Part shown: in pieces, positions 10,383 to 52,881 of the stretch
How positions within the stretch are numbered: the stretch's first letter is position 1
How the letters are laid out: each line of letters opens with the position of its first letter
Assembly (NCBI GenBank): GCA_937943575.1
Contig: CALEAV010000008.1
Span: 76,062-140,061, forward strand
From: an uncultured bacterium
GTDB taxonomy: Bacteria; Desulfobacterota; Desulfobaccia; Desulfobaccales; 0-14-0-80-60-11
Length of the DNA stretch: 64,000 nucleotides
Reading direction: 5' to 3'
Made by a program: the position numbers and the translations under genes
The notes under the pieces: model-generated
What the model was told of the DNA's origin: nothing
What the model saw: only the letters and a program-made list of their open reading frames with translations
The model's database searches: none

Positions 10383-10407
10383 CCCTGCGGATGGTGGGCC
10401 ATGTGCA

Positions 10408-10443
10408 GGGGTGGCCCCGATGCCGGGCCGCCCCTTTTTGTTT
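10408..10443 (+). terminator. Rho-independent terminator after the cytochrome gene
   Basis: GGGGTGGCCC (10408-10417) pairs with GGGCCGCCCC (10425-10434), with one G-U pair. It is followed by TTTTTGTTT. Confidence 0.7.
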
Positions 10444-10665
10444 CCGGCCTCACGGTCTCTCCCGCCAATTTTTCCCTTGTTCTGCGAGCTGGAAGAAATT
10501 ATAGTAAAAAGCTATGAAAACTAGATAATTTCCTCAATTCTGAAGGAGAGGGTGGGGGAAGGGAGGGGCCTCGACGCCCTGGCCCGCTCACTGCGCGAGC
10601 CGCTTTTCCCCGGCCTCCCAGGGCGAGGGGCGCAACCCTGATAGCTGCCGGAAAAGGACAAAGAC

Positions 10666-13562: not shown

Positions 13563-13624
13563 CGGCACCCGGAATCAGTCCCTTTCTCCGACGCCAAAGC
13601 GTCATATGAGGACAGATTGCGCTC

Positions 13625-29980: not shown

Positions 29981-30643
29981 ATGCTGGTCAAGGACTGGAT
30001 GACCAAAAACCCGGTGACCATCACCGATGACACCTCCATGATGAAGGCCATCCACCTCATGAAGCAGCACCGCTTCCGGCGGCTGCCGGTGATGCACGGG
30101 GGCGAGCTGGTGGGGGTGGTGACGGACCGGGACCTGAAGGAGGCCTCCCCTTCCAAGGCCACCACCCTGGATGTGCATGAGCTCTACTACCTTTTGGCGG
30201 AGCTGCAGGTCAAGGAGATCATGAGCCGCAACCCCATCACCGTGCGGGAGGACGACACGGTGGAGCATGCCGCCCAGCTCATGCTGGAGCACACCATCTC
30301 CGGGCTGCCGGTGGTGAATGCCGAGGGGCGGCTCACGGGCATCATCACCCAGTCGGATGTCTTTCGGGCCTTCATGCACATCACCGGCATCCAGCAGGGC
30401 GGGGTACAGTTCGCCCTGCGGCTGGAGGACCAGCCGGGGCTCATCAAGGAGGTGGTGGACCTGCTCCGCGGCCGGGGCGCCCGCTTCATCAGCCTCCTCA
30501 CCTCCACCGTCGCCTCGGAGGAGGGCTACCGGGAGGTGTATATCCGGGTGAAGAACCTGCCGCCCCAGGAGGTGGCCGCCGCCCGGGAGGAGCTGGCCCG
30601 GCGCTTCACCGTGCTCCACGTCATCGACGACACCGCCCGCTGA
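29981..30643 (+). CDS. CBS-pair plus ACT domain protein (AcuB-like)
   Basis: Two CBS motifs (MTKNPVTITDDTSM..LPVMHGGELVGVVTDRDL and MSRNPITVREDDTV..LPVVNAEGRLTGIITQSDV), then an ACT-like tail. Confidence 0.8.
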   Translation: MLVKDWMTKNPVTITDDTSMMKAIHLMKQHRFRRLPVMHGGELVGVVTDRDLKEASPSKATTLDVHELYYLLAELQVKEIMSRNPITVREDDTVEHAAQLMLEHTISGLPVVNAEGRLTGIITQSDVFRAFMHITGIQQGGVQFALRLEDQPGLIKEVVDLLRGRGARFISLLTSTVASEEGYREVYIRVKNLPPQEVAAAREELARRFTVLHVIDDTAR

Positions 30644-30822
30644 GGGAGCCCCATTCCCCTCTGACCCCCCCGCCCTTGAGGCCCTTTGCCGAGGGCTTCC
30701 GGGAAAGGGGCCCAAGAGCCCCCGGCCCCTTTGTCCCCTTCCCTCTCCGGCCCACCATGGAGGCAGCGGCAGGGGAGGCGGTGAGGCCCCCGGCCGCGGG
30801 GCCCCTTCGCAGAAGAGGCCCG

Positions 30823-31608
30823 TCAGGCGGGGGCGCCGGCCGGGTCGCCGGTTTTCCGGAAGACCACCCAGAGGTTGGGGGAAAAACGCGGGGTGTCAAT
30901 GTCCAGGCGGTCCACCGCCAGGGCCGCCAGGTTGTTCAGGGCGCACCACACAAGGAGCAGGGGCAGCAGCAGGCCCGCCAGGACCGCAGCCAGGGCGCTG
31001 CGGCGGCTGAGGCGGGCCAGTCCCGAGAAGGCCCAGTTGTGGATGAGCTGCACCACCGCGGTGCCCACCCCGCCCTGATAGCGCAGGGTCTCCACCTGCA
31101 ATCCCGCCCGCCCCAGCAACTCCTGCAGGCCGAAGGGGGAGTAGCGGAAAAAGTCATACGGCCCCACATGCACATTGTAGATGAAGGGCACCGACAGGAT
31201 GCCGGTACCGCCGGGCTTGAGCACCCGGGAGATCTCTTGGAGGACGGTCTCCGGCTGATTGACATGCTCCAGGACCTGGGAGCACAGGACCGCATCGAAG
31301 CTCCCGTCGGCAAAGGGCAGGCGCCGGGCGTCGCCGTAGACCTCGGGGCGGGCCTGGAAATCCTGCAGGGCCTGGGTCACCGGGTAATCCAGCCCCACAT
31401 AGCGGGTGACCTGGGGGAGATGCGGCCGGTAGGGCTGGTTGCCGCAGCCCACGTCCAGCAGGCGGCCCTGCAGCCGGGGGGCGTCGGCCTTGAGGTGCCG
31501 CCGGAAGTAGTGGGAGGGCAGGAACTGGAAGTGCAGCAGATTGGCGCTGAGCTCCTGCCCGCAGATCCAGCCATAAAGACGCGGCATCAGGCTGGCAAGT
31601 TTCCGCAT
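30823..31608 (-). CDS. Class I SAM-dependent methyltransferase with C-terminal membrane segment
   Basis: LLDVGCGNQPY (motif I), ..DAVLCSQVLEHV.., LKPGGTGILSVP. A hydrophobic C-terminal stretch follows. This is the last gene of the polysaccharide operon. Confidence 0.75.
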   Translation of the reverse strand: MRKLASLMPRLYGWICGQELSANLLHFQFLPSHYFRRHLKADAPRLQGRLLDVGCGNQPYRPHLPQVTRYVGLDYPVTQALQDFQARPEVYGDARRLPFADGSFDAVLCSQVLEHVNQPETVLQEISRVLKPGGTGILSVPFIYNVHVGPYDFFRYSPFGLQELLGRAGLQVETLRYQGGVGTAVVQLIHNWAFSGLARLSRRSALAAVLAGLLLPLLLVWCALNNLAALAVDRLDIDTPRFSPNLWVVFRKTGDPAGAPA

Positions 31609-31611
31609 GCC

Positions 31612-33546
31612 TCACCCTCCTAAGGCCTGCCGGCACCATTCGTCCAGCACCAGCAGGCGCCAGAGGTCTTCGCTGAGATCCTGCTGGCCCCCCAAAAATC
31701 GTCCGAGCAACGCCGCCACCGCCTCCCGCTGACAGAGGTGATATAAGGGGGCGGCGGCCGTAAGCAGGCGCTCTTTCAAGATGGCGGCCACATCCCCCTT
31801 GAGCCAGCGGCGCAGGGGCATCTGGAAGCCGTTTTTGGGCCGCTCCACAAACTCCGGCCCCAGGTCCGCCGTCAGGAGGCGCCGGATGAGGACTTTCTGC
31901 CGCCGGCCGTCGTATTTCAGGCTCGGAGGCAGCCTCAGGGCCAGCTCCACCAGCCGGTGGTCCAACAGCGGGCAGCGCAGCTCCAGGGAGGCAGCCATGG
32001 AGGCCCGGTCGGCCTTGACCAGGATATCCTCCGGCAGATAGGTGAGGAGGTCCACATACTGGAGGCGGGTGAGGAAATCCCGGGGGCCGGCCTCCCAGGC
32101 GGCGGTGAAATGATGATGGACGGCCGGCAGCTCTTCCGGGGAAGGCCGCACCTCCGGGCGCAGCAGGCCGAGGCCGGGGTCCCGGGAGACGATGGCCCGG
32201 TAGAGGTTATCGCTGCCGGCGGCCCGCTGCCAGAAGCTCTTCCCCCGGAGCCGGGCGGGCCAGGCCAGGGCCAGCAGGCCCAGGAGAGGCCGCCGGAGCC
32301 ATGGCGGCAGCGGCCCCCACAGGCTTTCCAGGCGGGAGGCGTGGTGGTAGCGGCGGTAGCCCGCCAGGATCTCATCCCCGCCGTCCCCGGACAGGGCCAC
32401 GGTCACCCGGCGCCGGGCCAGACGGGAGACGATCCAGGTGGGGAGGGCCGAGGAGTCGGCAAAGGGCTCGTCGAACTGGCGCACCACCTCGGGCAGGAGA
32501 GCCAGGGCGTCGGGGCTCACCACCTCCTCGGTATGATCCGTATGATAACGGGCCGTGACCCGCCGGGCCCAGGGGAGCTCGTTGGCCTCGGCTTCCGGAA
32601 AGCCGATGGCGAAGGTGCGGAGCGGGCCGGCCCCCAGACGGTGCATCTCCCGCACCACCACCGTGGAATCCAGCCCTCCCGAGGAGAAGGCGCCCAGGGG
32701 CACGTCGCTCACCAGGCGCAGGCGCACCGCCTCGCTGAGCTCCGCTTCGAACTCCTCCTGCCAAGCCCCCGGAGACTCTGCGGGTTCCGCCGCGGGCGGC
32801 TGCCAGTAGCGCCGGAGCTGCACCTCCCCCGGTCGGTTGAGATCCACCCAGGCCAGGTGGCCCGGGGGCAGTTTGGCCAGGCCCCGGTAGATGGTGTGCG
32901 GGGAGGGGATGTAGCCATAGAGCAGATATTGCCCCAGGGCCACCCGGTCCAGCTCCCGGGGCACCGCCGGGTCTGCCAGGATCGCCTTGAGCTCCGAGGC
33001 AAATTGCAGGCCCCGGGAAGTAGCATAGTAATAGAGGGGCTTTTTCCCCAGCCGGTCCCGGGCCAGAAACAGGCGCCGCTCGTGGAGATCCAGGATGGCG
33101 AAGGCGAACATCCCTCGGAAGAGCTGCAGGCAGTCCTCCCCCCAGTGGGCGAAGGCATGGAGCAGCACCTCGGTGTCGGAGTTGGCGGTGCGGAAGGTGA
33201 CGCCCGCCGCGGCCAGTTGCCGTCTCAGGTCACGATAGTTGTAGATTTCGCCGTTAAAGGTGATCCAGAAGCGACCCTGTGCCGCCGCCATGGGTTGGGA
33301 GGCGGCCGCGGACAGGTCCAGCACGGAAAGGCGCCGGTGCCCCAGAAACAGGTCCCAGGGGTGGGGAGGGGGCGCCAGGCCGTCCCCTTCCCGGCACAGG
33401 TGTGCCGCCCCGGTCCGGGAACAGGCCCACAGATACCCCCCTGCGTCCGGCCCCCGGTGCCTGAGGGTATCGGTCTGGCGCCGGCAGAGCTCCGGGGGCA
33501 CCGGCCCGGTCCCGGGGGAGTTTATGCGGCCGAATATACCGCACAT
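31612..33546 (-). CDS. asnB: Asparagine synthase (glutamine-hydrolysing) family amidotransferase
   Basis: MCGIFG (Cys2 nucleophile), ..FNGEIYNY.., and the PP-loop FSSGGLDST. Confidence 0.9.
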   Translation of the reverse strand: MCGIFGRINSPGTGPVPPELCRRQTDTLRHRGPDAGGYLWACSRTGAAHLCREGDGLAPPPHPWDLFLGHRRLSVLDLSAAASQPMAAAQGRFWITFNGEIYNYRDLRRQLAAAGVTFRTANSDTEVLLHAFAHWGEDCLQLFRGMFAFAILDLHERRLFLARDRLGKKPLYYYATSRGLQFASELKAILADPAVPRELDRVALGQYLLYGYIPSPHTIYRGLAKLPPGHLAWVDLNRPGEVQLRRYWQPPAAEPAESPGAWQEEFEAELSEAVRLRLVSDVPLGAFSSGGLDSTVVVREMHRLGAGPLRTFAIGFPEAEANELPWARRVTARYHTDHTEEVVSPDALALLPEVVRQFDEPFADSSALPTWIVSRLARRRVTVALSGDGGDEILAGYRRYHHASRLESLWGPLPPWLRRPLLGLLALAWPARLRGKSFWQRAAGSDNLYRAIVSRDPGLGLLRPEVRPSPEELPAVHHHFTAAWEAGPRDFLTRLQYVDLLTYLPEDILVKADRASMAASLELRCPLLDHRLVELALRLPPSLKYDGRRQKVLIRRLLTADLGPEFVERPKNGFQMPLRRWLKGDVAAILKERLLTAAAPLYHLCQREAVAALLGRFLGGQQDLSEDLWRLLVLDEWCRQALGG

Positions 33547-35078
33547 GGCTGGGCCTCCAGAATCGCCTCCGGCGCCGCCAGTCCCCGATGCTGAAGTATC
33601 TCCCGGCGCCGGGTCCAGAACCCGGTCTCCTCCTGGTGCAAAGCCACCAGGGCCCCAAACTCCGCCAAGACCTCCGGGGCCAGCCCGGGACGCAGGTCGG
33701 TCTGTTCCTCCGGATCTTTCTTCAGGTCATAGATTTCCAGTGCCCCATCCCAGCGTTCCAGGATTTTGAGGCCGTTATCCAAAAAGAGGGCGAAGCGGGA
33801 AGGGGAGAAGGTCTCCCGGGCCAGGGAAGCCTGCCGGGCCCGGTGCTGCCACCGGCTGAGCCACATCTCCGGGTAGAGGAGCTGGGCCACAGCGGCAGTC
33901 CGGGAGGGCGGCTCCAGGAGGGACGATGAGGTGGCCGGGCGGGGCAGGGGGCTGTCCACCAGGTCCAGCACCGTGGCGTAGAGGTCAGTGAGCGACACCA
34001 GGCGGTTATCCGTGCCCGGCGCCGCCCAGCCCCGGGGGTAGCGGATGAGGAGGGGCACCCAGAGCAGTTCGTTGTAAAGCGAGAGGATATGGGTGTAATG
34101 CCCCTTTTCGCCCAGGTGCTCGCCGTGGTCGGAGGTGATGATGACCGCGGTGTTCTCAAAAGCGGGGGACTGCCGCAGGGTGCGCCACAGACGGCCCAGC
34201 AGGTCATCCTGATACAGGACTTCGTCGTCATAAAGGTTGCGGTAGGTCGTCACCAGCTGCGCCGTTTCCGGATCCGGCGGCCGGCGATAGAAGCGCTGGG
34301 GGTCCACCCAGGCCCGGTCCCGCCAGCGGGAGAAGCGTCGCCAGCGCAGGGGTGGCCGGTAGGTCTGGTGCGCCTCCATGAGATTGATGAACAGAAAGAA
34401 GGGCTGCTCCGGCTCCCGGGCGAGGCGGGGCAGGGTGCGGCGGACCCACGCCAGGGTCTTTTCGGTGTAACCGGCGGATTTGGCCACCGGGCTGGGGTGC
34501 CAGAAGTCTTGGAGCAGCCGCCGGGCCAGGTGCCGGGCGGTGCGGCTGAGCTGCCCCACCCCGCCGGTCTCCTTCAGGTAGGTGAGGGTGAGGGCCACGG
34601 CCTCCCGCAGGGTCAACGCCTGTTTCAGCCGGCGGCCCAGCTCGCCGGTGTCTTTCTGGGCCTCCCCGGTAAAATTATGGAAAAACCGGTGCAGGTCGTG
34701 GCGGCCGAAATCGACGAACTCATCAAAGGCACCGCACAGGCCGGTGGCGGGGCTCACCAGGCCGTTGGAGGAGATGCCCAGGGTGCGGTAGCCGGCCATC
34801 TTGAGCACCGCAGTGAGGTGCTGCAGGTTGTCCCCGATAAGGAAACTGCCCTCGCAGGCGCCATGCTGGCTGGGGTAGAGGCCGGTGAACAGGGAGCCAT
34901 GGGAGGGCACGGTCCAGCAGCCCGGGGCATAGCAGCGGCTGTAAACCCGGCAGTCATCGGCCAGGCGCTCCATCTGGGGGCTGGTGGGCCGGGGATAGCC
35001 ATACAGCGACAGATGCCGGGCCCCGGTGGTGTCCAGCACAATCAGGATGATGTGGGGCGGACGGGCGGAACGGGTCAT
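33522..35078 (-). CDS. Sulfatase-like hydrolase/transferase (alkaline phosphatase superfamily)
   Basis: Start moved to the ATG at 35078 (ATGA overlap with the upstream stop). PHIILIVLDTTGARHLSLYGYPRPTSPQMERLA..CWTVPSHGSLFTGLYPSQHG..IITSDHGEHLGE. The canonical sulfatase C-x-P-x-R motif is not present. Confidence 0.75.
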   Translation of the reverse strand: MTRSARPPHIILIVLDTTGARHLSLYGYPRPTSPQMERLADDCRVYSRCYAPGCWTVPSHGSLFTGLYPSQHGACEGSFLIGDNLQHLTAVLKMAGYRTLGISSNGLVSPATGLCGAFDEFVDFGRHDLHRFFHNFTGEAQKDTGELGRRLKQALTLREAVALTLTYLKETGGVGQLSRTARHLARRLLQDFWHPSPVAKSAGYTEKTLAWVRRTLPRLAREPEQPFFLFINLMEAHQTYRPPLRWRRFSRWRDRAWVDPQRFYRRPPDPETAQLVTTYRNLYDDEVLYQDDLLGRLWRTLRQSPAFENTAVIITSDHGEHLGEKGHYTHILSLYNELLWVPLLIRYPRGWAAPGTDNRLVSLTDLYATVLDLVDSPLPRPATSSSLLEPPSRTAAVAQLLYPEMWLSRWQHRARQASLARETFSPSRFALFLDNGLKILERWDGALEIYDLKKDPEEQTDLRPGLAPEVLAEFGALVALHQEETGFWTRRREILQHRGLAAPEAILEAQPCAVYSAA

Positions 35079-36550
35079 GCGCTTCCCTCCTCCATCGGTC
35101 TCTCCAGGAGCAGCATCATTTCCTGCAGGACCGGTCTGACGGTGAGGCACAGGTAGGTGAAGCCAAAAAGGAGGCTGGCGGCCACCGGTCCCAGAGGATT
35201 CAGGGCCAGGGTGAAGATGCCGGCGGCCGCCGCGCCCCCCAGATGAGCCGGGACGAGGTCCCGGGCAAAGATGATCAGCCCCAGGCGGCGATAGACCGCC
35301 CAACTCATCGCCAGATTGACTCCCGCCAGCCAGACGGCCTTGGCGGCGGCCAGACCGGTGAGCCCCCCCAGAGCGGCTCCCAGGGCCAAAAGGGGCAGGC
35401 CCCCTGCGGCCGCCAGGGCCAGGAGGCGGGTCAGCACCCCTTGGTGGCCGGTCATGGCCAGCAGAAACCCCACCGATCCGCAGGCCACGTTCACCAGCTG
35501 GGCCAGGGCCAGGAGCCGGAGCGCCAGGGCTGCGGCCTCAAAACCTGCTCCGAACCAGCCCAGCAGCCGGGGGGCGAGGAGGAGGCAGCCCAGGGTCAAA
35601 GGCAGGGCCAGGTAGTAGGTCCAGCGGGAGGCGGCCCGGCCGAGATCCTCCAGCTGGCGGCGATCCCCCAGCTGATGGAGGCGGCTGAAGAGGGGGGGCA
35701 GCACCGCATTGATGGCGATGAGGGGCAGGCTCACCAACAGGGCAGTCTTGTTGGCGGCCTCAAAGTAGGCCACCTGGGCCGGGGGCTGAAACCACCCCAG
35801 GAGCAGGCTGTCCAGGGAACCGAAGGCCAGCCACACCAGGGCGCTCAGGTACAAGGGGGCGCTGTAGCGCAGCAGGGCCCCGAAGTGGCGGCCCTGCCCC
35901 TGCCCTCCGGGACGCTGCCGCAGGCCTTTCAGAAGCCGGGCGGCGATCAGGGAGCCTGCGGCCAGGTGGCTGAGGCAGAGCGCCAGCCCCAGGACGGCCA
36001 CGGCTGTGGCCCCCGCCCCCCCCGCCAAGGCCCAGATCAGAATCAGAAAGAGGAAGGGGAAGAGTCCGTCCTGACTGAGGACCACCCAGCGCGGCCCCAC
36101 CAGGGCCCGCAGGGCTTCGGCGCAGATCCCCATCCCGGTGGTGAAGGGCAGGAGGAGCGCCACCCAGGGGAGCAGGGTCAGAAGCAGGGGGGCCTGGAAG
36201 CGCCCGGCCAGCCAGTCCCCGGCCAGCCAGAGCCCGCCCCCGGCCGCGATCCCCATGCCGCATCCGATCCCCAGTGCCGGGGCCAACAGGGCCAGGAGAC
36301 GGCCCCGGGCGGCCTCCGGACCCCCGGCGGCAAAGAACCGCAGGATGCCGGTATCCAGGCCCAGGCGGCAGACAACCGCCAGTGTGGAAAGGAGGTAAAG
36401 CCCCAGGGTGTAGGTGCCCAGGACCTCGGCCCCATACAGCCGGGCCAGGAGAATCAGGGCATAATACCCCAGCGGCAGACTGAGGACCTTGACCGTGAAC
36501 GCCAGCAGGGAGTCCGCCGCCAGGGTGCGCAACAGGGGAGAAGGCGCCAT
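35075..36550 (-). CDS. Polysaccharide/oligosaccharide flippase (Wzx-like, MOP superfamily)
   Basis: 491 aa, polytopic, with about 12-14 hydrophobic segments. N-terminus ..LAFTVKVLSLPLGYYALILLARLYGAEVLG is typical of polysaccharide biosynthesis (Wzx) proteins. Confidence 0.7.
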   Translation of the reverse strand: MAPSPLLRTLAADSLLAFTVKVLSLPLGYYALILLARLYGAEVLGTYTLGLYLLSTLAVVCRLGLDTGILRFFAAGGPEAARGRLLALLAPALGIGCGMGIAAGGGLWLAGDWLAGRFQAPLLLTLLPWVALLLPFTTGMGICAEALRALVGPRWVVLSQDGLFPFLFLILIWALAGGAGATAVAVLGLALCLSHLAAGSLIAARLLKGLRQRPGGQGQGRHFGALLRYSAPLYLSALVWLAFGSLDSLLLGWFQPPAQVAYFEAANKTALLVSLPLIAINAVLPPLFSRLHQLGDRRQLEDLGRAASRWTYYLALPLTLGCLLLAPRLLGWFGAGFEAAALALRLLALAQLVNVACGSVGFLLAMTGHQGVLTRLLALAAAGGLPLLALGAALGGLTGLAAAKAVWLAGVNLAMSWAVYRRLGLIIFARDLVPAHLGGAAAAGIFTLALNPLGPVAASLLFGFTYLCLTVRPVLQEMMLLLERPMEEGSA

Positions 36551-37243
36551 CTAAAAATATCCCATGGCCCGCAGGCGCTTCATGATCTCTTCTTTTTTGG
36601 GATTCCGGCCCGCCCGTTCGGCCCCGCCCACGATGCCCCGCTGGGTGCAGGGGGCACAGCCCAGACTCCGGTATCCTTGGCGATAGAGCGGGCAGAAAGG
36701 CAGGTCAAAAGTCTTCTGGTAGGCCCAGATGTCCAGCTCGGTGAAATGCAAAATGGGGTGGACCCGCACATGCTGGGGCTCGAGGCGGGGGGCAAAATAG
36801 TCTTCCTGCCGCCGGTCGGGCTGCTCGTCCCAGCGCATCCCGGTGATGAGGGCCTGCCAGCCGTGGTCCTCGATGGCCCGGGCAATCACCCGGGTCTTCA
36901 GCAGGGTGCAGCACTCCTCCTGGTCGGCCGCGATGCGGATAGTGCGGATGGCCTCCTCATTGCGGGCGATGATGAGGTTCAGCCCCCACTCCTGGGCCAG
37001 CCGGTCCCGGAAGGCATAGATCTCCGGGAACTTGACGCTGGTGTCGATGTTCAGCACCGGGATGGGCACCCGGCCGCCGCCGAGGTCCCTCAACAGGTGC
37101 AGGATGGTGGTGGAGTCCTTGCCCCCGGTCCAGGCCAGGGCGATGGCGCCTTCGAAACGGGTGAGGGCCTCTTCCAGGATTTCCCGGCTCAGCCGGACCT
37201 TTTCTTCCAAACCGTTGGAGTTCATGGGTGCTCCTTTGCTCAC
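36551..37243 (-). CDS. PAPS/APS reductase family protein (PP-loop)
   Basis: ..AIALAWTGGKDSTTILHLL (PP-loop SGGKDS-like), ..ITGMRWDEQPDR.., ..YRSLGCAPCT. The CysH ECGLH tail is absent. Confidence 0.7.
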   Translation of the reverse strand: MSKGAPMNSNGLEEKVRLSREILEEALTRFEGAIALAWTGGKDSTTILHLLRDLGGGRVPIPVLNIDTSVKFPEIYAFRDRLAQEWGLNLIIARNEEAIRTIRIAADQEECCTLLKTRVIARAIEDHGWQALITGMRWDEQPDRRQEDYFAPRLEPQHVRVHPILHFTELDIWAYQKTFDLPFCPLYRQGYRSLGCAPCTQRGIVGGAERAGRNPKKEEIMKRLRAMGYF

Positions 37244-38445
37244 AGATTGGTGACCAGCCTGAGGGGCTGGGGCTTGGCGGCTGCCGGCCGGCTTGCCGGC
37301 TGCCAGGTGATGCGGGGCAGGATGTACTCCGGCCGGATCCTCTCCTGGTGGCGCAGGACCACCTGCAGCATCTCCACCAGCACCTCCCGGGTCAGGTAAT
37401 GGGGCTGGAGGCCCAAGGCGAGGAGGCCGGTGTGGGCCGGATTGTAGTAATGCTCCTCGGCCTCCTGGCGGGGGTTGGGCAGCCGGCGGATGGCCACCTC
37501 CAGGCCCAGCTCCCGGGCCGCCTCCTGCACCCGGCGGGCCAGCTCCAGCACGGTGAAGGTCTCCACAAACTGGTTGAAGACCCGGTACTGCCCCGGAGCG
37601 GCGGGGTGCTCCAGGGCCAGGGTGACGCAGGCCAGGGTGTCCCGGAGGTGGAGATAGCCCCGGGTTTGGCCGCCCCGCCCGTAGACGGTCAGGGGAAAGC
37701 CCGCCACCGCCTGCACCAGGAAGCGGTTCAGCACCGTGCCGAAGATGTCATCGTAGTTGAAGATGGTGGCCAGGCGCTCATCATCCCCCTCGCATCCGGC
37801 GCTCAGCCCATAGACCGGACCCTGGTTGAGGTCCGTGACCCTCAGGTTCCAGATGCGGGCGTAAAAATACAGCATGTCCCCGTCCTGGGACTTGGTGAGG
37901 TGGTAGAGGGACCCCGGCGTCTTGGGATAGAGGAAGGTGTGCCGGCGGCCCTTGTATTCCACCTCCAGATAGCCCTCTTCGATGTCGATGTTGGGGGTGC
38001 CGTACACGCCCATGGTCCCCAGCTTGACGAGGTGACAGTCCGGCTGAAATTCCGCCACCGCATGGATGAGGTTCAGGGTGGACACCAGGTTGTTGGTCAG
38101 GGTGAAGAGGGCGCTCTCCCGGTCCCGCATGGAGTAGGGGGCCGAGGGCTGCTCGGCGTAGTGCACCACCCCCTCGGGGGAGAAGTCCTGAAAGACCCGG
38201 GAGAGGAAGGGATAATCGCAGACATCCCCCACCGCCACCCGGATGGTCAGGCCGGAGTGCGCCCGCCAGAGCTCGGCCCGCTGATGCAGATTGGGCACCG
38301 GGACCAGGGGCTCGCAGTTGAGGGCGGTGCAGATGCGCCGCCTAAAGTAGTTGTCCACCACCATGACCTCGTGGCCGTGGGCGGAAAGATGCATGGCCGT
38401 GGGCCACCCCAGATAGCCGTCGCCTCCCAGAATCAAAATCCGCAT
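37240..38445 (-). CDS. sqdB: UDP-sulfoquinovose synthase (SQD1/SqdB family SDR)
   Basis: Long blocks are shared with SQD1 as I recall it: ILGGDGYLGWPTAMHLS, HYAEQPSAPYSM, CHLVKLGTMGVYGTPNIDIEEGY, LTVYGRGGQTRGYL, NPRQEAEEHYYN. Confidence 0.85.
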   Translation of the reverse strand: MRILILGGDGYLGWPTAMHLSAHGHEVMVVDNYFRRRICTALNCEPLVPVPNLHQRAELWRAHSGLTIRVAVGDVCDYPFLSRVFQDFSPEGVVHYAEQPSAPYSMRDRESALFTLTNNLVSTLNLIHAVAEFQPDCHLVKLGTMGVYGTPNIDIEEGYLEVEYKGRRHTFLYPKTPGSLYHLTKSQDGDMLYFYARIWNLRVTDLNQGPVYGLSAGCEGDDERLATIFNYDDIFGTVLNRFLVQAVAGFPLTVYGRGGQTRGYLHLRDTLACVTLALEHPAAPGQYRVFNQFVETFTVLELARRVQEAARELGLEVAIRRLPNPRQEAEEHYYNPAHTGLLALGLQPHYLTREVLVEMLQVVLRHQERIRPEYILPRITWQPASRPAAAKPQPLRLVTNL

Positions 38446-38448
38446 GCC

Positions 38449-39573
38449 TCACCCCCACATCCCGACCTGCCTGACCGGCAGCAGATGAATCGACTTCGGC
38501 CATCTCGGAACCTGCTGCAGGGAGGGATCGCCAGTCACCTCCCCGAGGACCCCGTTTTCCTGGAGAAACCTCTTGATCTGCTCCACCGTCAGGGGTTTTT
38601 CCCGGGAGGAGACATAAGCCCGGGGCACCGCTCGGGGGAAGATCTCCCCCGGATAGGAGTAGTCGATCTTCTGGTAGAAGCTGCGCATGGCCGGCAGGAT
38701 GACAAACATCCTGTCCAGCTCCACCGCCCGGCCGGTCTCCTCCTGGCTCATGAGCTCCTCGTAAAGCTTTTCCCCGGAGCGGGCGCCGATGAAGCGGATC
38801 TCCACCTCATCGGGGTTATAGCCATAGACCGGGGCGAGAAGCTCGATCATGGCCTGGGCCAGGTCCAGGATGCGCATCACCGGCATCTTGGTGACCAGGA
38901 CCTCACCCCCGCAGGCCAGCACTGCCGCCTCCAGGATCAGGCGGGCCGCCTCCGACAGGGTCATGAAGAAGCGGGTCATGTGGATATCGGTCACCGTCAC
39001 CGGCCGACCCCGGCGGATCTGCTCCGCAAAGATGGGCACCACCGACCCCCGGGAGCCGATGACATTGCCGAAGCGGACGCTGGAGAAGACCTGGCGGCCG
39101 TTGGGGTTAACGATGTTGGCGGCGGTCATCAGGCGCTCCCCCATGAGCTTGGAGGTGCCCATGACGTTGGTGGGGTTCACCGCCTTGTCGGAACTGGTGA
39201 AGATCACCCGGGGCACTTTGTGGGCCAATGCCGCCTGGATGACGTTTTTCACCCCCAGGATGTTGGTCTGCACCACATCGAAGGGGTTGTATTCCGACAG
39301 GGTGACATGCTTGTAGGCCGCCACATGGAAGATGAGGTCCACGCCCTGGCAGAGATTCTCCAGTTTGCCGGCGTCCCGCACATCCCCCAGGTAGGCGGTG
39401 AGGCGGCCGCTGGAGGCATGGGTCTCCCGCAGATGGAAGAGCTCTGTCTCGTTGTTGTCCACCGCCCGGATCTCCGCCGGCTCCAGGGCCAAAAGCTGCC
39501 GCACCAGCTCCTGCCCCACCGAGCCGGCCGCCCCGGTAATGAGGATGGTCTTGTGGGCAAAATGCTCTTTCAT
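38449..39573 (-). CDS. Polysaccharide biosynthesis nucleotide-sugar 4,6-dehydratase/epimerase (CapD/PseB-like)
   Basis: Start moved to the ATG at 39573. KTILITGAAGSVGQELVRQLL..FHVAAYKHV..NILGVKNV..FTSSDKAVNPTNVMGTSK. Confidence 0.8.
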   Translation of the reverse strand: MKEHFAHKTILITGAAGSVGQELVRQLLALEPAEIRAVDNNETELFHLRETHASSGRLTAYLGDVRDAGKLENLCQGVDLIFHVAAYKHVTLSEYNPFDVVQTNILGVKNVIQAALAHKVPRVIFTSSDKAVNPTNVMGTSKLMGERLMTAANIVNPNGRQVFSSVRFGNVIGSRGSVVPIFAEQIRRGRPVTVTDIHMTRFFMTLSEAARLILEAAVLACGGEVLVTKMPVMRILDLAQAMIELLAPVYGYNPDEVEIRFIGARSGEKLYEELMSQEETGRAVELDRMFVILPAMRSFYQKIDYSYPGEIFPRAVPRAYVSSREKPLTVEQIKRFLQENGVLGEVTGDPSLQQVPRWPKSIHLLPVRQVGMWG

Positions 39574-39640
39574 GATTTCACCTGATAAATGGTGGAATTG
39601 CCTCTCAAGGCCCGTTACCCGCCACCCTGGAGACTTTGGT

Positions 39641-41956
39641 TCATTGGCCGGCCGAAGCCCGGGTCTCGGCCGGGGGCTCATCGTAATACTGGTCGTAATA
39701 GCCGTGGCCGTAGTGGCCGTTGCGGCCGATGCCGTTGTAGTGCACCTGGTTAAGCACCAGGCCCAGGAGAGGGGCCCGCGCCTGGGCGAAGAGCTGCCGG
39801 GCCAGGCGCCCGGAATCCCGGGTGGTGCCCTGGTGTTTGATCACCAACAGGACCCCGTCCGCCAGCGCGGCGAGGATCCGGGCGTCACTGAACCCCAAAA
39901 CCGGCGGGGTGTCCAGGAGGAGGTGGTGGTAGCCCTCCTGCAACTGGGCCAGGAGATGGCGGAAGCGCGGGGAATGCAGCAGTTCCGCCGGATTGGGAGG
40001 CACCGGGCCCGCCGGCACGAACCAGAGGTTTTCCACCGGGGTGGGAAGGATGATCTCCTCCGGGGCGGCGCTGCCGGTGAGGTAATCGGTGAGGCCCGGC
40101 CGGGAGGGCAGCTTGAGGGCCAGGTGCAGCCGGGGCCTCCTCAGGTCGCAGTCCAGGAGGATGGTGCGCCGCTGCCCCTGGGCCAGGGAAGCCGCCAGAT
40201 TCAGGGAGATGGTGGACTTGCCCTCCCTGGGGTTGGGACTGGTGACGACCAGGGTGCGAGGGGGCTGCCCGGAGGCCGACAGCATCAGGGAGGTGCGCAG
40301 ATGCCGAATCGCCTCGCTGATGGGAGAGCGGGGCTGCTGCACCACGATGAGGTCGGCCCGGCCCTCCGGCTCCGGCGCCACGCCCCGGAAAGGGTTCCGC
40401 CAGACGGGAATATGGGCCAGGAGGCGGTCCTTGAGGTCCGGACCCGGCAGGGCTTTCTCCGGGGCGGCTTTAGGAACCACCCCCAGGGTGGGCGTCTGGC
40501 AGATGCGCTCGGCTTCCTCTGAGGTCTTGAGGGTGTCGTCCAGATACTCCGCCAGGAAGGCGGCGCCGATGCCGCCCCCCAGGCCGATGACCCCGGCCAG
40601 GGCCAGGAAGAGGAGGGTCTTGGGGAAATACGGCTCCGCCGGCAGGTCCGCCGGATCAATGACCGCCACGTTGCTGGCCACCATGGTGCTGGCCACGGTG
40701 GTCTCCCCCATGCGGGCCAGGAGGGCCTGGTAGAGTTTCTCGGTGGTCTGGGTGTCCCGCTTCAGCATCTGGAAGTCAACCAGGCTGTCCTGCAGGTGGG
40801 CCAGCTGCTGCTTGTGGGTCTCGAAGGCCTCGCTGAGGAGCTTTTCCGCCCGGCTGGCGGCTTCGTAATCGGCCCGGGCGCTCTCCTGCAGGCGTTTCAC
40901 CTCCGCCGCCAGGCGGCTGCTCAGTTCATTGAGCTTGGCGGTCTCGGCCTGCATCTCCGGGTGGCCGGGGAGATAGATGCGGGCCAGGCTGGCCACCTTG
41001 GCGTTCTGGGCCACATACTCCTGCCGCAGGGTGGCGATGAGGGGGTGGTTGGTGATGGGGGAGGCGTCGGGGCCCTTCTCCTTGAGCTGGCGGTAGACGG
41101 CCTCCTTGGCCAGGCGCTCGGACTGGGCCTTGGTGAGCAGGCCCCCCAGCTCCACGTATTTCTGGAACAGGACCGTGTCCTTGCCCCCCAGATCCTCCAT
41201 GACGAAGATGTCCGCCTTGCGGCTGTAGTCGAAGAGCTTGCGGGTGGAGGCCTGCAGGCGCTGGCCCATCTGCTCCAGCTGCTTCTCCAGCCACTCCCGG
41301 ACCATCACAAAGGACTGGCTGCGGGTGTCGATGGCCAGCTGCATGTATTCCCTGGGGATGGTGTTGGCCACCTTCTGGGCCAGGGACTGGTCGCTGGACA
41401 GAAAGGAGACCTCCACCAGGAAGGAGTCCTTCACCGGCCTGACCTCCAGCTTCTTCAGAAACAGGTCGATGAGGTCGTTTTTGCGCTTTTCCGGAGAGAG
41501 CCCCTCCTGCCTGCTCACCCCGTGGAAGTCCGGGTGGTCGGCCAGATTCAGGGACTCGATGAGGCGCCAGGCCAGGGCCCGGCTGGCCAGGATCTTGTTT
41601 TGGGTCTCCTGGAACCTGCTCAGCTCCGAGCCGCTCTGGAGGCTGGTCAGGGGATCGGTGTCTCCCAACCGGGCCCCGGGATTGTCCTGGGTGATCTGGA
41701 TGACGGTGCTGGCCCGGTAGACCGGGGTGACCACCAGGCAGAAGAGCCCGGTGAGGAGAAGCACCCCGGCCAGGGTGCCCAGAAGCCACCGTCTCCGGGA
41801 CCACAGGATGCCCAGATAGTCCCGGAAGGTGAGGGATTCTCCGGGAAGGAAGTCGGCATAGTATTCCGCCTCCCGGGCCGGCGGGGTGCCGGGGCCTGGG
41901 ATCACCATGGGGGAGCGGTTATCCTGTAACATCTCTCTTTCCTCTGTAAGCCGCAT
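39641..41956 (-). CDS. wzc: Polysaccharide co-polymerase / tyrosine autokinase (Wzc/GumC-like)
   Basis: 771 aa. N-terminal Wzz-type chain-length domain with long coiled coils. C-terminal P-loop VVTSPNPREGKSTISLNLA. Tyr-rich tail GHYGHGYYDQYYDE. Confidence 0.85.
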   Translation of the reverse strand: MRLTEEREMLQDNRSPMVIPGPGTPPAREAEYYADFLPGESLTFRDYLGILWSRRRWLLGTLAGVLLLTGLFCLVVTPVYRASTVIQITQDNPGARLGDTDPLTSLQSGSELSRFQETQNKILASRALAWRLIESLNLADHPDFHGVSRQEGLSPEKRKNDLIDLFLKKLEVRPVKDSFLVEVSFLSSDQSLAQKVANTIPREYMQLAIDTRSQSFVMVREWLEKQLEQMGQRLQASTRKLFDYSRKADIFVMEDLGGKDTVLFQKYVELGGLLTKAQSERLAKEAVYRQLKEKGPDASPITNHPLIATLRQEYVAQNAKVASLARIYLPGHPEMQAETAKLNELSSRLAAEVKRLQESARADYEAASRAEKLLSEAFETHKQQLAHLQDSLVDFQMLKRDTQTTEKLYQALLARMGETTVASTMVASNVAVIDPADLPAEPYFPKTLLFLALAGVIGLGGGIGAAFLAEYLDDTLKTSEEAERICQTPTLGVVPKAAPEKALPGPDLKDRLLAHIPVWRNPFRGVAPEPEGRADLIVVQQPRSPISEAIRHLRTSLMLSASGQPPRTLVVTSPNPREGKSTISLNLAASLAQGQRRTILLDCDLRRPRLHLALKLPSRPGLTDYLTGSAAPEEIILPTPVENLWFVPAGPVPPNPAELLHSPRFRHLLAQLQEGYHHLLLDTPPVLGFSDARILAALADGVLLVIKHQGTTRDSGRLARQLFAQARAPLLGLVLNQVHYNGIGRNGHYGHGYYDQYYDEPPAETRASAGQ

Positions 41957-41976
41957 GGGGTGCGGAAACGGGGGAC

Positions 41977-43029
41977 TCAGTTGGCGAACCGGTAGGCGCC
42001 GCTGTAGGTCCCGGGCAATAGCTCCTTGAAGATGAACAGACCCTTGCGCAGGGCGCTCTCCCCCACCACCACCACGTCATTGTCCTTGAGGGGGATGTCC
42101 TCCTCCTGGCGGTTGAGAATGCGCTTCAGGTCCGCAGCCAGCTGAATGGCGTTTCCCTTATCGTCCCGGCGGGTGACACTCACCTTGGAGGTGGCCAGAA
42201 GCGGATCCGGGCCGCCGGCCAGGGCCACCGCCTGGCTGACGGTGAGGTTGTCCTTCACCGTGACGCTGCCGGGGCGGCGGACGCCGCCCAGCACATAGGC
42301 GTTGCCGGCGAAGGGCACGTGGATGACGTCGCCGTGGCGGATGGGCACATTGAGGGCGGCCTCACCGGCCAGCAGGCGCTTCAGGTCCACCACGATGGTC
42401 TCGGCCCGGGGGGAGAAAGGCTGGGGTGTGCCCTCCCGGGGGTCATGGCGCCGGATGATGTGCACCACATCCCCGGCCTTGGCGGCCCCGGGCTTGTCCT
42501 GCAGCCCCCCGGCCAGGGCCAGCATCTCCAGCAGGGTGCGGGGCCCGATCATCTCATAGGAGCCGGGTTTGTCCACCGCGCCGGTGATGGCCACCCGCTG
42601 GTGACGGAACTCCTTGACGCTGACGGTGATCTGGGGGTGCCGCAGGTATTGGGAGCCGTAGGCCGCCGCCAGCCGCTTCTCGATGGCCTGGGGGGTGTGA
42701 CCGGCCACCTGCACGTCGCCCACCAGGGGCAGGCTGATCTTCCCGTCGCCGTTCACCCGGACGGTGCGGTTCAGGTTGTCCTGGCCGAAGACCACCACTT
42801 CCAGGAGGTCTTCGGGGCCCACCTCATAATCCCGGCGGCTCTGGAGGGAAGATGCCCCGGCCTGGGCCAGAAGCTGCTGCTGCAGCTGCTGCCGGGAGCG
42901 GCTGTCGCTTTCCACCTGGGCCACCAGGGCCTGGGGCGGCACCCCGGTGGCCGCCGTCCCGCAGCCCCAGACAACCCCGGCACCCAGGGCGGCGAGGAGG
43001 ACGCTCCGGAGATAAAATATGTTAACCAT
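41977..43029 (-). CDS. wza: Polysaccharide export outer-membrane lipoprotein (Wza-like)
   Basis: Lipobox ..GAGVVWGC. YEVGPEDLLEVVVFGQDNLNRTVRVNGDGKISLPLVGDVQVAG (Poly_export motif) plus SLBB-like repeats. Confidence 0.8.
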   Translation of the reverse strand: MVNIFYLRSVLLAALGAGVVWGCGTAATGVPPQALVAQVESDSRSRQQLQQQLLAQAGASSLQSRRDYEVGPEDLLEVVVFGQDNLNRTVRVNGDGKISLPLVGDVQVAGHTPQAIEKRLAAAYGSQYLRHPQITVSVKEFRHQRVAITGAVDKPGSYEMIGPRTLLEMLALAGGLQDKPGAAKAGDVVHIIRRHDPREGTPQPFSPRAETIVVDLKRLLAGEAALNVPIRHGDVIHVPFAGNAYVLGGVRRPGSVTVKDNLTVSQAVALAGGPDPLLATSKVSVTRRDDKGNAIQLAADLKRILNRQEEDIPLKDNDVVVVGESALRKGLFIFKELLPGTYSGAYRFAN

Positions 43030-43329
43030 GGCCGACAGTTACCCCCTGAGGGTGGAATGCGGGGAGGTGGTTCCCTGCCGGTGGCCACCCGGCCGGCCTC
43101 CCCTTTTGTCCCCCACATCGGAGGGGGGTGGCAGAAACTTTAAGAAAATTTAAAAAAAGCTAAAGGGAATTGGTAATTTCTTAACATTTAGGGCAGTTAG
43201 GCTATCTTAAGAAGGAAATCGCCAGCCGGCCTTCCCCAGGGGAAGGGAAAGGCTTGGATGCGGAAACCTCTTTTTTTCCCGGAGCGCCTGTGGTAAAGAG
43301 ACAGAGGAGTCAACCGGTTAGGGGAAGGA

Positions 43330-52719: not shown

Positions 52720-52881
52720 GGGAGCGGTGCAATCTTTTTTGAAGAAGCGTGCCAGAGAGCAGGAGACCTCCGCCCCTCTCTGATCCCCATGCGGGAGGGG
52801 CGGGCAGGGGCTTACCATGCTGCCGCCCATTCAAGGAACTTTGCGCCCGGGCCGATGGGTGGTCAGGGTGACGCAGCGTCC

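Follow-up and report, generated by a model that had tools for sequence, protein, structure and literature searches.

A capsule-type export operon carrying an SQD1-type UDP-sulfoquinovose synthase and a CysD-like/sulfatase-like gene pair in an uncultured Desulfobacterota bacterium

Gene content and conservation of the operon

Nine genes are packed on the minus strand of the analysed window, a 64-kb stretch of DNA from an uncultured bacterium of the Desulfobacterota, and Pfam and NCBIfam profile searches place them in the families that the original prediction had named: a Wza-like and a Wzc-like protein, a CapD-like dehydratase, SqdB, a PP-loop protein, a Wzx-like flippase, a sulfatase-like protein, an AsnB-like amidotransferase and a methyltransferase. 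We chose gene starts that agree with the lengths of homologues and with the genes as called on the identical ENA contig, and the observations given below are those of gene content, family membership, motifs, synteny and gene fusions. The junctions are tight, as had been claimed: wza and wzc are 20 or 44 nt apart, depending on the wzc start taken, wzc and capD 67 nt, capD and sqdB 3 nt; the PP-loop gene and wzx abut with 0 nt between them, wzx and the sulfatase-like gene overlap by 4 nt, the latter and asnB by 25 nt, and 3 nt separate asnB from the methyltransferase gene. Between the PP-loop gene and sqdB the claimed overlap of 4 nt did not stand, as it needs a GTG start at 37243; since most of the 120 homologues listed are 224 aa long, we take the start to be the ATG at 37225, which leaves a gap of 14 nt.

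The export proteins share many features with those of Wzx/Wzy-type loci for group 1/4 capsules and EPS. The Wza-like outer-membrane polysaccharide export (OPX) lipoprotein (41977..43029, 350 aa) has the Poly_export, SLBB_2 and SLBB domains and a lipobox (VWGC), as in such loci, matches the EpsE, pepcterm_export and EpsY NCBIfam models below their cutoffs, and is syntenic in five related loci (L010, L012, L041, L042, L054). The Wzc-like PCP-2a co-polymerase and BY tyrosine autokinase (39641..41956; 771 aa as an ORF, 763 aa as called from 41932) combines Wzz, GNVR and P-loop domains, passes the TIGR01007 cutoff (152 > 108), and possesses two TM-like segments, Walker A (GKST), A' (DCDLRRP) and B (LLLDTPP) motifs and a C-terminal tyrosine cluster, YGHGYYDQYYD. 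The flippase (35075..36550, 491 aa; Polysacc_synt and Polysacc_synt_3) belongs to the MOP family and has 12 TM-like segments. Unlike group 1/4 loci, the operon encodes neither Wzy nor a Wzb phosphatase, and both a priming transferase and glycosyltransferases are missing from it; it carries sqdB, which our literature searches did not find within any described EPS/CPS locus.

Absence of a glycosyltransferase and of Wzy from the operon had been noted, and the ORF scan bears it out: the ORFs scanned across the window yielded neither Wzy nor sqdX/sqdD, nor any glycosyltransferase of the GT-A or GT-B type, and their sole glycosyltransferase-type match, a PMT_2 (GT-C) protein, lies about 10 kb off, at 52789-54492. 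As the operon lacks glycosyltransferases, a priming transferase and Wzy, any link to a polymer rests on its neighbouring genes and on related loci. A Syntrophobacterales MAG (L010) keeps the nine-gene order, with protein identities of 82-93%, and the same chromosomal site holds the whole operon in two further assemblies (L039/L045 and L040), so that the arrangement is not a product of chance. At the same site of a Desulfobacca-labelled contig (L041) wza-wzc-capD-sqdB stand alone, which defines them as a four-gene core, and contigs labelled Syntrophobacterales, Desulfobacca and Desulfobacterales share their order, at identities of 45-93%. In other lineages this core heads complete loci (L042/L047, L054 and L058) and is followed by Wzx, Wzy, GT2/GT4 glycosyltransferases and the priming transferase (Bac_transf); L042, L054 and L058 carry contiguously the capsule/EPS genes that the operon itself lacks.

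The capD-sqdB pair and the destination of its sugar

SqdB (37240..38445, 401 aa) matches the solved structure of SQD1, 1qrr, at E = 2.5e-134 and is 51% identical to Arabidopsis SQD1 over 381 residues without a gap; the long identical blocks that had been noticed between the two proteins are therefore real. As with SQD1, SqdB and Agl3, it shows the extended SDR fold with GxxGxxG and [ST]MG...Yx3K motifs, here in the form of GGDGYLG, T-M-G and Y-H-L-T-K, the TMG...YxxxK signature. A phylogenetic check had been proposed, and our neighbour-joining tree puts the protein nearer to plant SQD1 than the S. meliloti SqdB is. It scores 442 bits on the NCBIfam model of UDP-sulfoquinovose synthase (NF041015), under the cutoff of 575. 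The sequence evidence supports a genuine SQD1-type enzyme.

To our knowledge, membrane lipid SQDG is the sole established bacterial fate of UDP-sulfoquinovose, and it could be suggested that SqdB serves this lipid only, as in cyanobacteria and rhizobia, its place behind wza-wzc-capD being a historical accident. The operon holds no glycosyltransferase that would place the sugar into a polymer, and in three loci (L043, L061, L074) sqdB has no export genes and only another epimerase beside it, which would agree with such a view. We consider it not very probable, because no sqdX/sqdD-type gene was found among the ORFs scanned in the window, the order of the core is kept across three contig labels over the range of identities given above, and in several lineages the core runs straight into the genes of polymer assembly. 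The validated lipid arrangement also looks different: in S. meliloti, our control, a glycosyltransferase gene follows and overlaps sqdB, and there is no capD. Instead of the lipid partners sqdX/sqdD or the archaeal N-glycosylation partners, the enzyme described here is accompanied by a CapD-like dehydratase and Wza/Wzc. Agl3 of Sulfolobus feeds an N-glycan, and the context here likewise suggests that the sugar goes to a glycan and not to a lipid. Gene context in the window, together with the related loci, supports linking sqdB not to SQDG but to a polysaccharide flipped by Wzx and exported by Wza/Wzc.

The CapD-like protein (38449..39573, 374 aa) is a short SDR of the UDP-GlcNAc dehydratase type (CapD/Polysacc_synt_2, PF02719 at 333 bits), which falls below the cutoffs of the PseB and FnlA models and possesses the motif SDK...M-G-T-S-K. 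Its best solved relative is Pen (6bwc, 273 bits), a UDP-GlcNAc 5,6-dehydratase (PMC8987622), followed by an FnlA-type enzyme, FlaA1, CapE and PglF. In 46 of 56 loci, corresponding to 41 of the 49 informative non-redundant metagenome groups, its gene is the one directly upstream of sqdB, a frequency valid for this clade only, since the loci were retrieved by similarity to the SqdB of the window. By analogy with Pen/Pal, the pair might form a two-enzyme UDP-GlcNAc pathway in which the CapD/Pen-like enzyme would give a 5,6-ene (or 4-keto-5,6-ene) HexNAc and sulfite would then be added to it by the SqdB homologue, yielding a 6-sulfo-6-deoxy-HexNAc and not sulfoquinovose. Besides the frequent adjacency and the relation to Pen, this scheme is favoured by a core without any reductase or aminotransferase to complete a 6-deoxy-HexNAc and by the 5,6-ene intermediate through which both Agl3 and SQD1 proceed (PMC4388408). 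It nevertheless appears quite improbable: the SqdB shares half of its residues with the UDP-glucose-specific SQD1, to which it is nearer than the rhizobial enzyme is, and the CapD-like protein has the Mx3K of PglF and CapE, not the Yx3K of Pen. Two substitutions in SqdB considered as signs of a lost dehydratase activity are uninformative and were dropped; E148V is carried by the S. meliloti SqdB as well, and R101P does not track capD adjacency in the sampled relatives.

The PP-loop protein and its sulfatase-like partner

The PP-loop gene (36551..37225, 224 aa; Pfam PAPS_reduct at 140 bits) had been suggested to encode a reductase-family protein that could supply SqdB with sulfite. It shares with iron-sulfur CysH proteins, the APS reductases, the Pfam domain and a Cys-Cys...CxxC motif (CC...GCAPCT), its gene follows sqdB immediately here and in L012/L042, and on a plasmid of Pelagovum pacificum a true cysH adjoins an sqdB homologue. 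The further evidence makes a dedicated PAPS/APS reductase highly improbable. Unlike CysH, the protein has no ECG(L/I)H motif and no cysteine at all beyond CxxC, the same being true for 118 of the 120 homologues listed; its P-loop (TGGKDS) is intact, while that of the Pelagovum CysH, where ECGIH is present, is degenerate (SFGTEAA); and it scores below cutoff on every reductase model of NCBIfam. In addition, the core of L041 has sqdB without the PP-loop gene, and the family adjoins or fuses with sulfatase-like proteins in loci that have no sqdB.

What the protein does resemble is CysD, the sulfate adenylyltransferase subunit, in its PP-loop GKDS, N-terminal similarity (about 30% to E. coli CysD) and C-terminus (ERAGR...MGYF); CysD is its best solved relative (1zun). 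CysD-like proteins that each precede a CysN-like GTPase share 46-50% identity with it; L031, the only one of them scored, passes the NCBIfam CysD cutoff (PRK05253), and the protein from the window stays below it (139 < 195). Relatives of it form pairs or fusions with CysN-like GTPases, with NPP-type proteins on their flanks. By its sequence the protein is thus a shortened CysD relative, not a PAPS/APS reductase, and we call it mini-CysD. It differs from CysD in its length of just 224 aa, two missing insertions, no CysN partner, the CC...CxxC motif of APS reductases and a partner, sometimes fused, from the alkaline phosphatase (AP) superfamily; with CysN and both insertions missing, its ability to make APS is uncertain.

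That partner is the cytoplasmic sulfatase-like protein (33522..35078, 518 aa; PF00884 at 149 bits). It has the sulfatase fold and an SGSH_C-like C-terminal subdomain, as S1 sulfatases and other AP-superfamily enzymes (NPP, phosphoethanolamine transferases) do, and keeps the metal ligands D and DH of the superfamily. Unlike formylglycine sulfatases, which have Cys/Ser at the nucleophile site, it has W-T-V-P-S-H in place of the C/SxPxR motif, whose loss had been predicted correctly; in alignment to the GlcNAc-6-sulfatase 5g2v a Thr stands for the formylglycine Ser and a His for the Arg. Conserved family-wide are D, W-T-x-P-S-H, (D/E)xH and SDHGE, and motif comparison finds no KxH pair in the family. 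The protein is not a sulfatase, which makes the suggested transferase role plausible. Known transferases from this superfamily (EptA, LtaS, OpgB) sit anchored in the membrane and act outside the cytoplasm, whereas this protein appears soluble, no signal peptide or TM segment being found in it.

Mini-CysD genes adjoin sulfatase-like or NPP genes in L004-L009, L011/L038, L012/L042 and L014, loci without sqdB among them, and fusions of the two proteins occur in L015 and among the top 120 protein clusters, 34 of which show them, one coming from the cultured Desulfovirgula thermocuniculi. The glycan loci in which the fused genes lie also encode ABC-2 transporters, methyltransferases and GT4s. The conserved partner of mini-CysD is the sulfatase-like protein, not SqdB.

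A Thr nucleophile in this superfamily normally points to phosphoryl, not sulfuryl, transfer, and the pair may have no relation to sulfur, activating and transferring instead a phosphoryl-type group, such as a phosphate or phosphodiester substituent, with subsequent methylation, much as in the methyl-phosphate caps that some O-antigens bear. Such chemistry would fit the resemblance of the Thr, (D/E)xH and SDHGE to NPP and phosphotransferase members, the missing KxH pair that binds sulfate in S1 sulfatases, the Pfam Phosphodiest protein that partners mini-CysD in L012/L042, the methyltransferases that go along with the pair, and the PAPS_reduct fold of eukaryotic FMN adenylyltransferases. We think it unlikely, given that the nearest characterised relatives are CysD subunits of sulfate adenylyltransferase, that mini-CysD relatives go with CysN-like GTPases and that the APS-reductase-type cysteines are retained.

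Two further genes complete the operon. The AsnB-type glutamine-dependent amidotransferase (31612..33546, 644 aa; GATase_7 and Asn_synthase) begins with MCGIF and passes the TIGR01536 cutoff (449 > 267), its 568 bits on the XrtA/PEP-CTERM amidotransferase model TIGR03108 lying under the cutoff. The class I SAM-dependent methyltransferase (30823..31608, 261 aa; Methyltransf_11, _23, _25) has a 57% identical homologue after the sulfatase-like gene in L054. As a lead only, the set recalls the acm cluster for the 5'-O-sulfamate of ascamycin and dealanylascamycin, where CysD/CysN-type sulfate activation occurs beside a protein of the sulfatase family whose role is unexplained, an enzyme that donates nitrogen and a methyltransferase (PMC4257720); acm genes make a nucleoside antibiotic and include an APS kinase as well as a classical sulfotransferase, neither of which the operon has.

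A possible sulfur-rich polysaccharide

From the sequence evidence we are inclined, with somewhat better than even confidence, to suggest as the likely product of the operon an extracellular or capsular polysaccharide that is anionic and contains sulfoquinovose, with a mini-CysD/sulfatase-like module for its decoration. The original reading as a sulfonated polysaccharide would persist in this form, carried by the SQD1-type SqdB and by the related loci that run into Wzx, Wzy and glycosyltransferases, and without the sulfite supply by the PP-loop protein.

We propose that the operon is vertically inherited in a Syntrophobacterales-related bacterium, and that the Wza channel, the Wzc co-polymerase and tyrosine kinase and the Wzx flippase would be the envelope machinery by which a polysaccharide of the Wzx/Wzy type is secreted, its repeat unit being built by glycosyltransferases, a priming transferase and Wzy whose genes lie at other sites of the genome. 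The deeply conserved nucleotide-sugar pair would consist of a CapD/Pen-like UDP-GlcNAc dehydratase and the SQD1-type synthase; we infer that the latter turns UDP-glucose, together with sulfite, into UDP-sulfoquinovose and that this sugar enters the polymer, the sulfite probably coming from the general sulfur metabolism of the cell. The CysD-like ATP-dependent enzyme, the Thr-nucleophile protein, the amidotransferase and the methyltransferase may comprise a cytoplasmic decoration module, in which the most plausible role of mini-CysD is to adenylate sulfate or some similar oxyanion; the activated group would then pass to its sulfatase-like partner, by which a further substituent would be added. 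The operon joins capsule-type export, a sulfoquinovose synthase and a second, sulfate-activation-like module, and, if our reading is true, it would make a sulfur-rich secreted polysaccharide of a kind undescribed in bacteria.

Gene content and conservation of the operon

Nine open reading frames on the minus strand (30823-43029) encode, in order, a Wza-like OPX protein, a Wzc-like co-polymerase/tyrosine kinase, a short CapD/Polysacc_synt_2 dehydratase, an SQD1-type SDR (SqdB), a PAPS_reduct-domain protein of the PP-loop type, a Wzx-type flippase, a Sulfatase-domain protein, an AsnB-type amidotransferase and a class I methyltransferase. Pfam and NCBIfam assignments agree with the nine families of the original prediction, and third-position G+C is high in all nine frames, in a window of about 68% G+C. 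An identical copy of the region, with independent gene calls, is held by an ENA metagenome contig whose gene starts were adopted here; with these starts the packing is as tight as had been described, the tightest junction overlapping by 25 nt and the widest leaving 67 nt between genes. The predicted 4-nt overlap of the PP-loop gene with sqdB, which implied a GTG start, did not survive: the majority of the 120 listed homologues have 224 aa, which puts the start at the ATG at 37225, 14 nt past sqdB. Divergently oriented housekeeping genes flank the operon on both sides, namely those for a CBS protein, PlsY, rubrerythrin and MoeA on one, and for a zinc-ribbon protein, an SH3 protein, MgsA, DnaJ and pyruvate:ferredoxin oxidoreductase on the other. 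A promoter and terminator scan of 30400-43500 gave counts not above those of shuffled sequence and was uninformative on the operon boundaries.

The Wza-like protein (41977-43029, minus) has a Poly_export (PES) domain, SLBB domains and a lipoprotein signal. At 350 aa it is short; of the models that it hits below threshold, EpsE, pepcterm_export and EpsY rank first. The Wzc-like protein has the build of a PCP-2a BY-kinase, with two transmembrane segments around a periplasmic Wzz/GNVR region, Walker A, A' and B motifs and a C-terminal tyrosine cluster, and scores 152 bits against TIGR01007 (cutoff 108). As had been noticed, no glycosyltransferase or Wzy was detected in the operon by Pfam/NCBIfam and an ORF scan, and the scanned ORFs of the whole 64-kb window contain no GT-A/GT-B glycosyltransferase, Wzy or priming transferase. 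The full set of a Wzx/Wzy locus, that is, a priming phosphoglycosyltransferase, glycosyltransferases and Wzy beside Wzx, is absent from the operon and from the scanned ORFs of the window, whereas related loci (L042, L054, L058) do contain these genes.

A single gene of glycosyltransferase type was found in the window; it encodes a PMT_2/ArnT-like GT-C protein (52789-54492, plus; 567 aa, about six TM-like segments) and lies about 10 kb from the operon. A 413-aa membrane protein (25990-27231, plus) was considered as a hidden Wzy and rejected, since a thioredoxin-like CPHC domain precedes its membrane segments; it has no Pfam match and, with about six TM-like segments after CPHC, resembles a DsbD/CcdA-type thiol-disulfide transporter. 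Elsewhere in the window (8160-16768, plus) a likely metal efflux system is encoded: first comes a protein of 740 aa that weakly matches cytochrome c7, and after it an outer-membrane factor, an adaptor of the CusB/HlyD type that bears a heavy-metal-binding domain, and a pump of the AcrB family.

The MAG Syntrophobacterales bacterium HOT.CON.10, the closest genome record, has all nine genes with their order unchanged, the proteins being 82-93% identical, and two more NCBI assemblies carry the same nine genes with the same genes on either flank. A contig whose proteins are labelled Desulfobacca acetoxidans in UniRef has only wza-wzc-capD-sqdB at the same chromosomal site, from which we read the operon as a core of four genes to which an accessory block of five is joined. 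On contigs with Desulfobacca protein labels in UniRef (L041, L043, L004-L006) three unlinked pieces are seen: the four-gene core, a second sqdB paralogue adjoining another epimerase, and a triad of Methyltransf_24, sulfatase-like and PP-loop genes beside RNase Y and YmdB. It appears that the lineage of the window merged the four-gene core with a decoration block of its own.

SqdB and the destination of its product

Sequence matches to solved structures are unambiguous at the fold level. SqdB aligns with Arabidopsis SQD1 (PDB 1qrr) over its full length and with no gaps, 193 of 381 residues being identical (51%; BLASTP, E = 2.5e-134), so that the likeness to SQD1 pointed out from the sequence is borne out, with the signature kept. 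According to a review (Table 1, PMC8987622), an extended SDR with GxxGxxG and [ST]MG...Yx3K carries the signature of SQD1 and Agl3; SqdB has both the NAD site, as GGDGYLG, and the second motif, as T-M-G at SQD1 positions 145-147 and Y-H-L-T-K at 182-186. In a neighbour-joining tree, the placement that the original prediction had called for, the SqdB clade adjoins plant SQD1 and is closer to it than is SqdB of S. meliloti, which stands further out together with the Pelagovum homologue, at about 42% identity. Having characterised synthases on both sides of it in the tree, SqdB most likely catalyses the standard UDP-sulfoquinovose synthase reaction, as judged from its sequence. Its score over the whole NF041015 model (positions 1-384) is 442 bits, below the NCBIfam equivalog cutoff of 575, which we take as a caution and not as an exclusion.

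Glu147 of Agl3, equivalent to Glu148 of SQD1, was reported as important (PMC4388408). SqdB carries Val at this position, and Pro at that of Arg101. A loss of the dehydration step was considered and rejected: Val148 is also found in SqdB of S. meliloti and Pelagovum, and neither substitution tracks with capD adjacency among the sampled relatives, so that both are uninformative as signs of altered catalysis. Contig L071 holds two SqdB paralogues about 3 kb apart (5608-6765 and 10001-11143), one 71% identical to SqdB of the window and with capD upstream, the other 51% identical and with a divergent active-site loop, GTMGEHGRL. A haloarchaeal homologue of 36% identity, on a Natrinema versiforme plasmid (L127:5001-9934), is followed by two more epimerase/dehydratase genes, DUF2304, a methyltransferase and a GT4, in what looks like a glycan locus.

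Whether sulfoquinovose made by such an enzyme goes to a lipid or to a polysaccharide may be judged from the company that sqdB keeps. Three contigs labelled Desulfobacterales (L012, L042, L047) open with the same wza-wzc-capD-sqdB head, go on with PP-loop, NPP-type (Pfam Phosphodiest), Wzx and Wzy_C genes, and then have another NPP-type gene, a GT2 and a priming enzyme of the Bac_transf family. After the same head L054 has a sulfatase-like gene, two methyltransferases, GT4s and Bac_transf, and L058 has WbqC, UDP-GlcNAc 2-epimerase, Wzx, GT4 and Wzy. We further retrieved 80 metagenome loci (L044-L123) by similarity to SqdB of the window, at 59-83% identity. Enough sequence ahead of sqdB is available in 56 of them, and in 46 of these (41 of 49 groups after near-duplicates were collapsed) the gene immediately upstream is CapD-like. 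On the downstream side Bac_transf, GT2, GT4 or Wzx genes are typical. S. meliloti served as a control: there a glycosyltransferase gene, of the lipid pathway, overlaps sqdB, and no CapD-like gene is present. Three lines of gene context thus support a polysaccharide rather than a lipid as the probable destination of the SqdB product, and the sulfoquinovose-containing exported polysaccharide proposed originally gains support from comparative genomics. In the open-access literature we found no sqdB in any described bacterial EPS, capsule/CPS or O-antigen locus, which is weak evidence, and the capD-sqdB gene pair (37240-39573 in the window) seems previously undescribed.

The best solved relative of the CapD-like protein is Pen, a UDP-GlcNAc 5,6-dehydratase, followed by an FnlA-type enzyme, FlaA1/PseB, CapE and PglF, and it shares the motif SDK...Mx3K with the last two. 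Such close pairing with sqdB could mean that two separate unusual sugars enter one repeat unit; a two-enzyme route to a sulfo-HexNAc is in our opinion less likely.

A CysD-like protein and its sulfatase-like partner

The PP-loop protein (36551-37225, minus, 224 aa) had been proposed as a reductase that supplies SqdB with sulfite, and this part of the prediction is not supported. Its TGGKDS, Cys-Cys (EECC), GCAPCT and C-terminal ERAGR...MGYF motifs are conserved across 120 listed homologues, and the catalytic C-terminal Cys of the CysH motif ECG(L/I)H is missing: no Cys follows GCAPCT in the protein of the window or in 118 of the 120. All reductase models score below cutoff (PRK02090, 119 against 154 bits; TIGR02055, 85 against 235; TIGR00434, 87 against 165). 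A Cys-Cys...CxxC motif like that of the iron-sulfur site in the APS-reductase subclass is present and conserved family-wide. TGGKDS and ERAGR...MGYF align with CysD-like proteins and with E. coli CysD, and CysD is the best solved relative; the protein scores likewise below the CysD cutoffs (PRK05253, 139 against 195 bits; TIGR02039, 100 against 397). Proteins of 253-267 aa from Acidobacteriota, Planctomycetota, Desulfobacteraceae and Bathyarchaeota MAGs are 46-50% identical to it and precede, or are fused to, CysN-like EF-Tu-type GTPases, flanked by NPP-type proteins; the only one of them that was scored, from L031, reaches 331 bits, above the PRK05253 cutoff of 195. No CysN GTPase partner was found in the window or in the related loci L010-L015. 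The motifs, the best solved relative and the CysN-linked relatives together make the protein a shortened CysD relative that lacks CysN, and we refer to it as mini-CysD.

A dedicated sulfite supply beside sqdB does exist: on the 41-kb plasmid p_SM1903_1 of Pelagovum pacificum (L124:8001-9907) an sqdB homologue is followed, 20 nt on, by an annotated phosphoadenylyl-sulfate reductase which, used as a control, has TECGIH and a degenerate P-loop. The reductase idea is therefore realised in nature but not in the operon of the window. A GT2 and a DUF4422 protein are also encoded nearby in the Pelagovum locus.

By sequence and gene context, the PP-loop and sulfatase-like genes are partners in a widespread module of their own. 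Mini-CysD is found on contigs with no sqdB nearby, where its neighbours are a sulfatase-like protein and a methyltransferase in housekeeping surroundings, beside two sulfatase-like genes and Wzx in a Desulfobacteraceae EPS locus, and adjoining NPP-type genes in L012 and L042. In a Bacillota MAG (L015:8408-10666) one 752-aa ORF joins a Thr-type sulfatase-like domain, a DUF4214 linker and mini-CysD. A search with it showed that at least 34 protein clusters, out of the best 120 and representing several phyla, are built in the same three-domain way; the fusion proteins have 730-823 aa (P0245-P0285, P0353), and one cluster comes from the cultured Desulfovirgula thermocuniculi. The two fusion genes examined (L128:10001-12322 and L129:10001-12244) belong to glycan loci, where ABC-2 transporters, methyltransferases and a number of glycosyltransferases are also encoded. 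Such pairings, fusions and loci suggest that mini-CysD and the sulfatase-like protein form a cytoplasmic glycan-modification unit. The ABC-2 transporter pair is near the fusion gene in both loci and directly upstream of it in L129, a layout that recalls, by analogy, the terminal-capping enzymes of ABC-dependent O-antigen pathways.

The sulfatase-like domain has other partners as well, being fused to GT4 (about 1010 aa; P0317, P0319, P0322, P0328, P0329, P0336), to radical-SAM (about 970-1007 aa; P0333, P0345, P0350, P0360) and to a methyltransferase domain (861 aa; P0364). In L013:3038-9482 mini-CysD has no AP-superfamily (alkaline-phosphatase superfamily) neighbour within the contig and stands beside a MetW-like methyltransferase, radical-SAM/SPASM, GT4 and GT9 heptosyltransferase-like genes. 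CysN-linked CysD-like genes with CC...CxxC occur in L018, L019, L021, L022, L027, L030, L031, L033, L036 and L037, from Acidobacteriota, Planctomycetota, Brocadiia and Bathyarchaeota MAGs; apparent CysD-like/CysN-like fusions are ORFs of 606-695 aa, and one or two NPP-type Phosphodiest genes flank these loci, from which we infer that the link between sulfate activation and the AP superfamily is much older than the operon of the window.

The sulfatase-like protein has no signal peptide and no membrane segment. It aligns with S1 sulfatases and keeps their metal ligands; the KxH pair is absent, with S-N-G where 5g2v has K-W-H, and the C/S-x-P-x-R motif reads T-V-P-S-H, Thr standing at the formylglycine residue and His in place of Arg, so that the lack of CxPxR noticed earlier is real. 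L-D-T, W-T-x-P-S-H, E-A-H and S-D-H-G-E, found in 12 aligned homologues including the fusion, point to a Thr-nucleophile AP-superfamily enzyme of the NPP/phosphotransferase-like kind. Neither the NPP-type partners nor the triad's Methyltransf_24 protein is covered by an NCBIfam model, and we found no account of a CysD/AP-superfamily pairing in the open-access literature, which is weak evidence.

We favour the reading that the CysD-like half activates sulfate and the AP-superfamily half transfers it. A serious alternative is that the pair handles a phosphoryl-type group instead. If sulfate is the substrate, the CysD-like half would make adenylyl sulfate, the AP-superfamily half would use it on the spot to pass a sulfuryl group to a lipid-linked or nucleotide sugar, and this coupling would replace the CysN GTPase and classical sulfotransferases. 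That mini-CysD and the cytoplasmic Thr-nucleophile protein constitute an unrecognised, PAPS-independent glycan sulfation system is on our own estimate an unlikely proposal. The ascamycin cluster (PMC4257720), where sulfate-activation genes lie alongside an unexplained sulfatase-family protein, is a loose precedent for the pairing in the operon.

Biological significance

Should PAPS-free sulfation be true, the operon, together with SqdB, would yield a polysaccharide both C-sulfonated and O-sulfated, and sulfamate or methylated sulfate might even be part of the product, given the AsnB-type amidotransferase and the methyltransferase. The CysD-like/sulfatase-like pair is in any case widespread, both as neighbouring genes and as a fusion, and lacks an assigned function; the presence of the fusion in cultured Desulfovirgula thermocuniculi makes it open to testing now.

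Few organosulfur compounds are as abundant as sulfoquinovose. Most accounts ascribe its production to the thylakoid lipid SQDG of phototrophs, the one known exception being an archaeal N-glycan. If the link of an SQD1-type synthase to capsule or EPS is true, anaerobic Desulfobacterota and many other uncultured bacteria would be a source of sulfoquinovose that is bound in polymers and independent of photosynthesis, located in anoxic sediments and digesters. A sulfonated sugar would then join the known chemistry of bacterial surface polysaccharides, and the finding would bear on who feeds the sulfoglycolytic and sulfite-respiring microbes of these environments.
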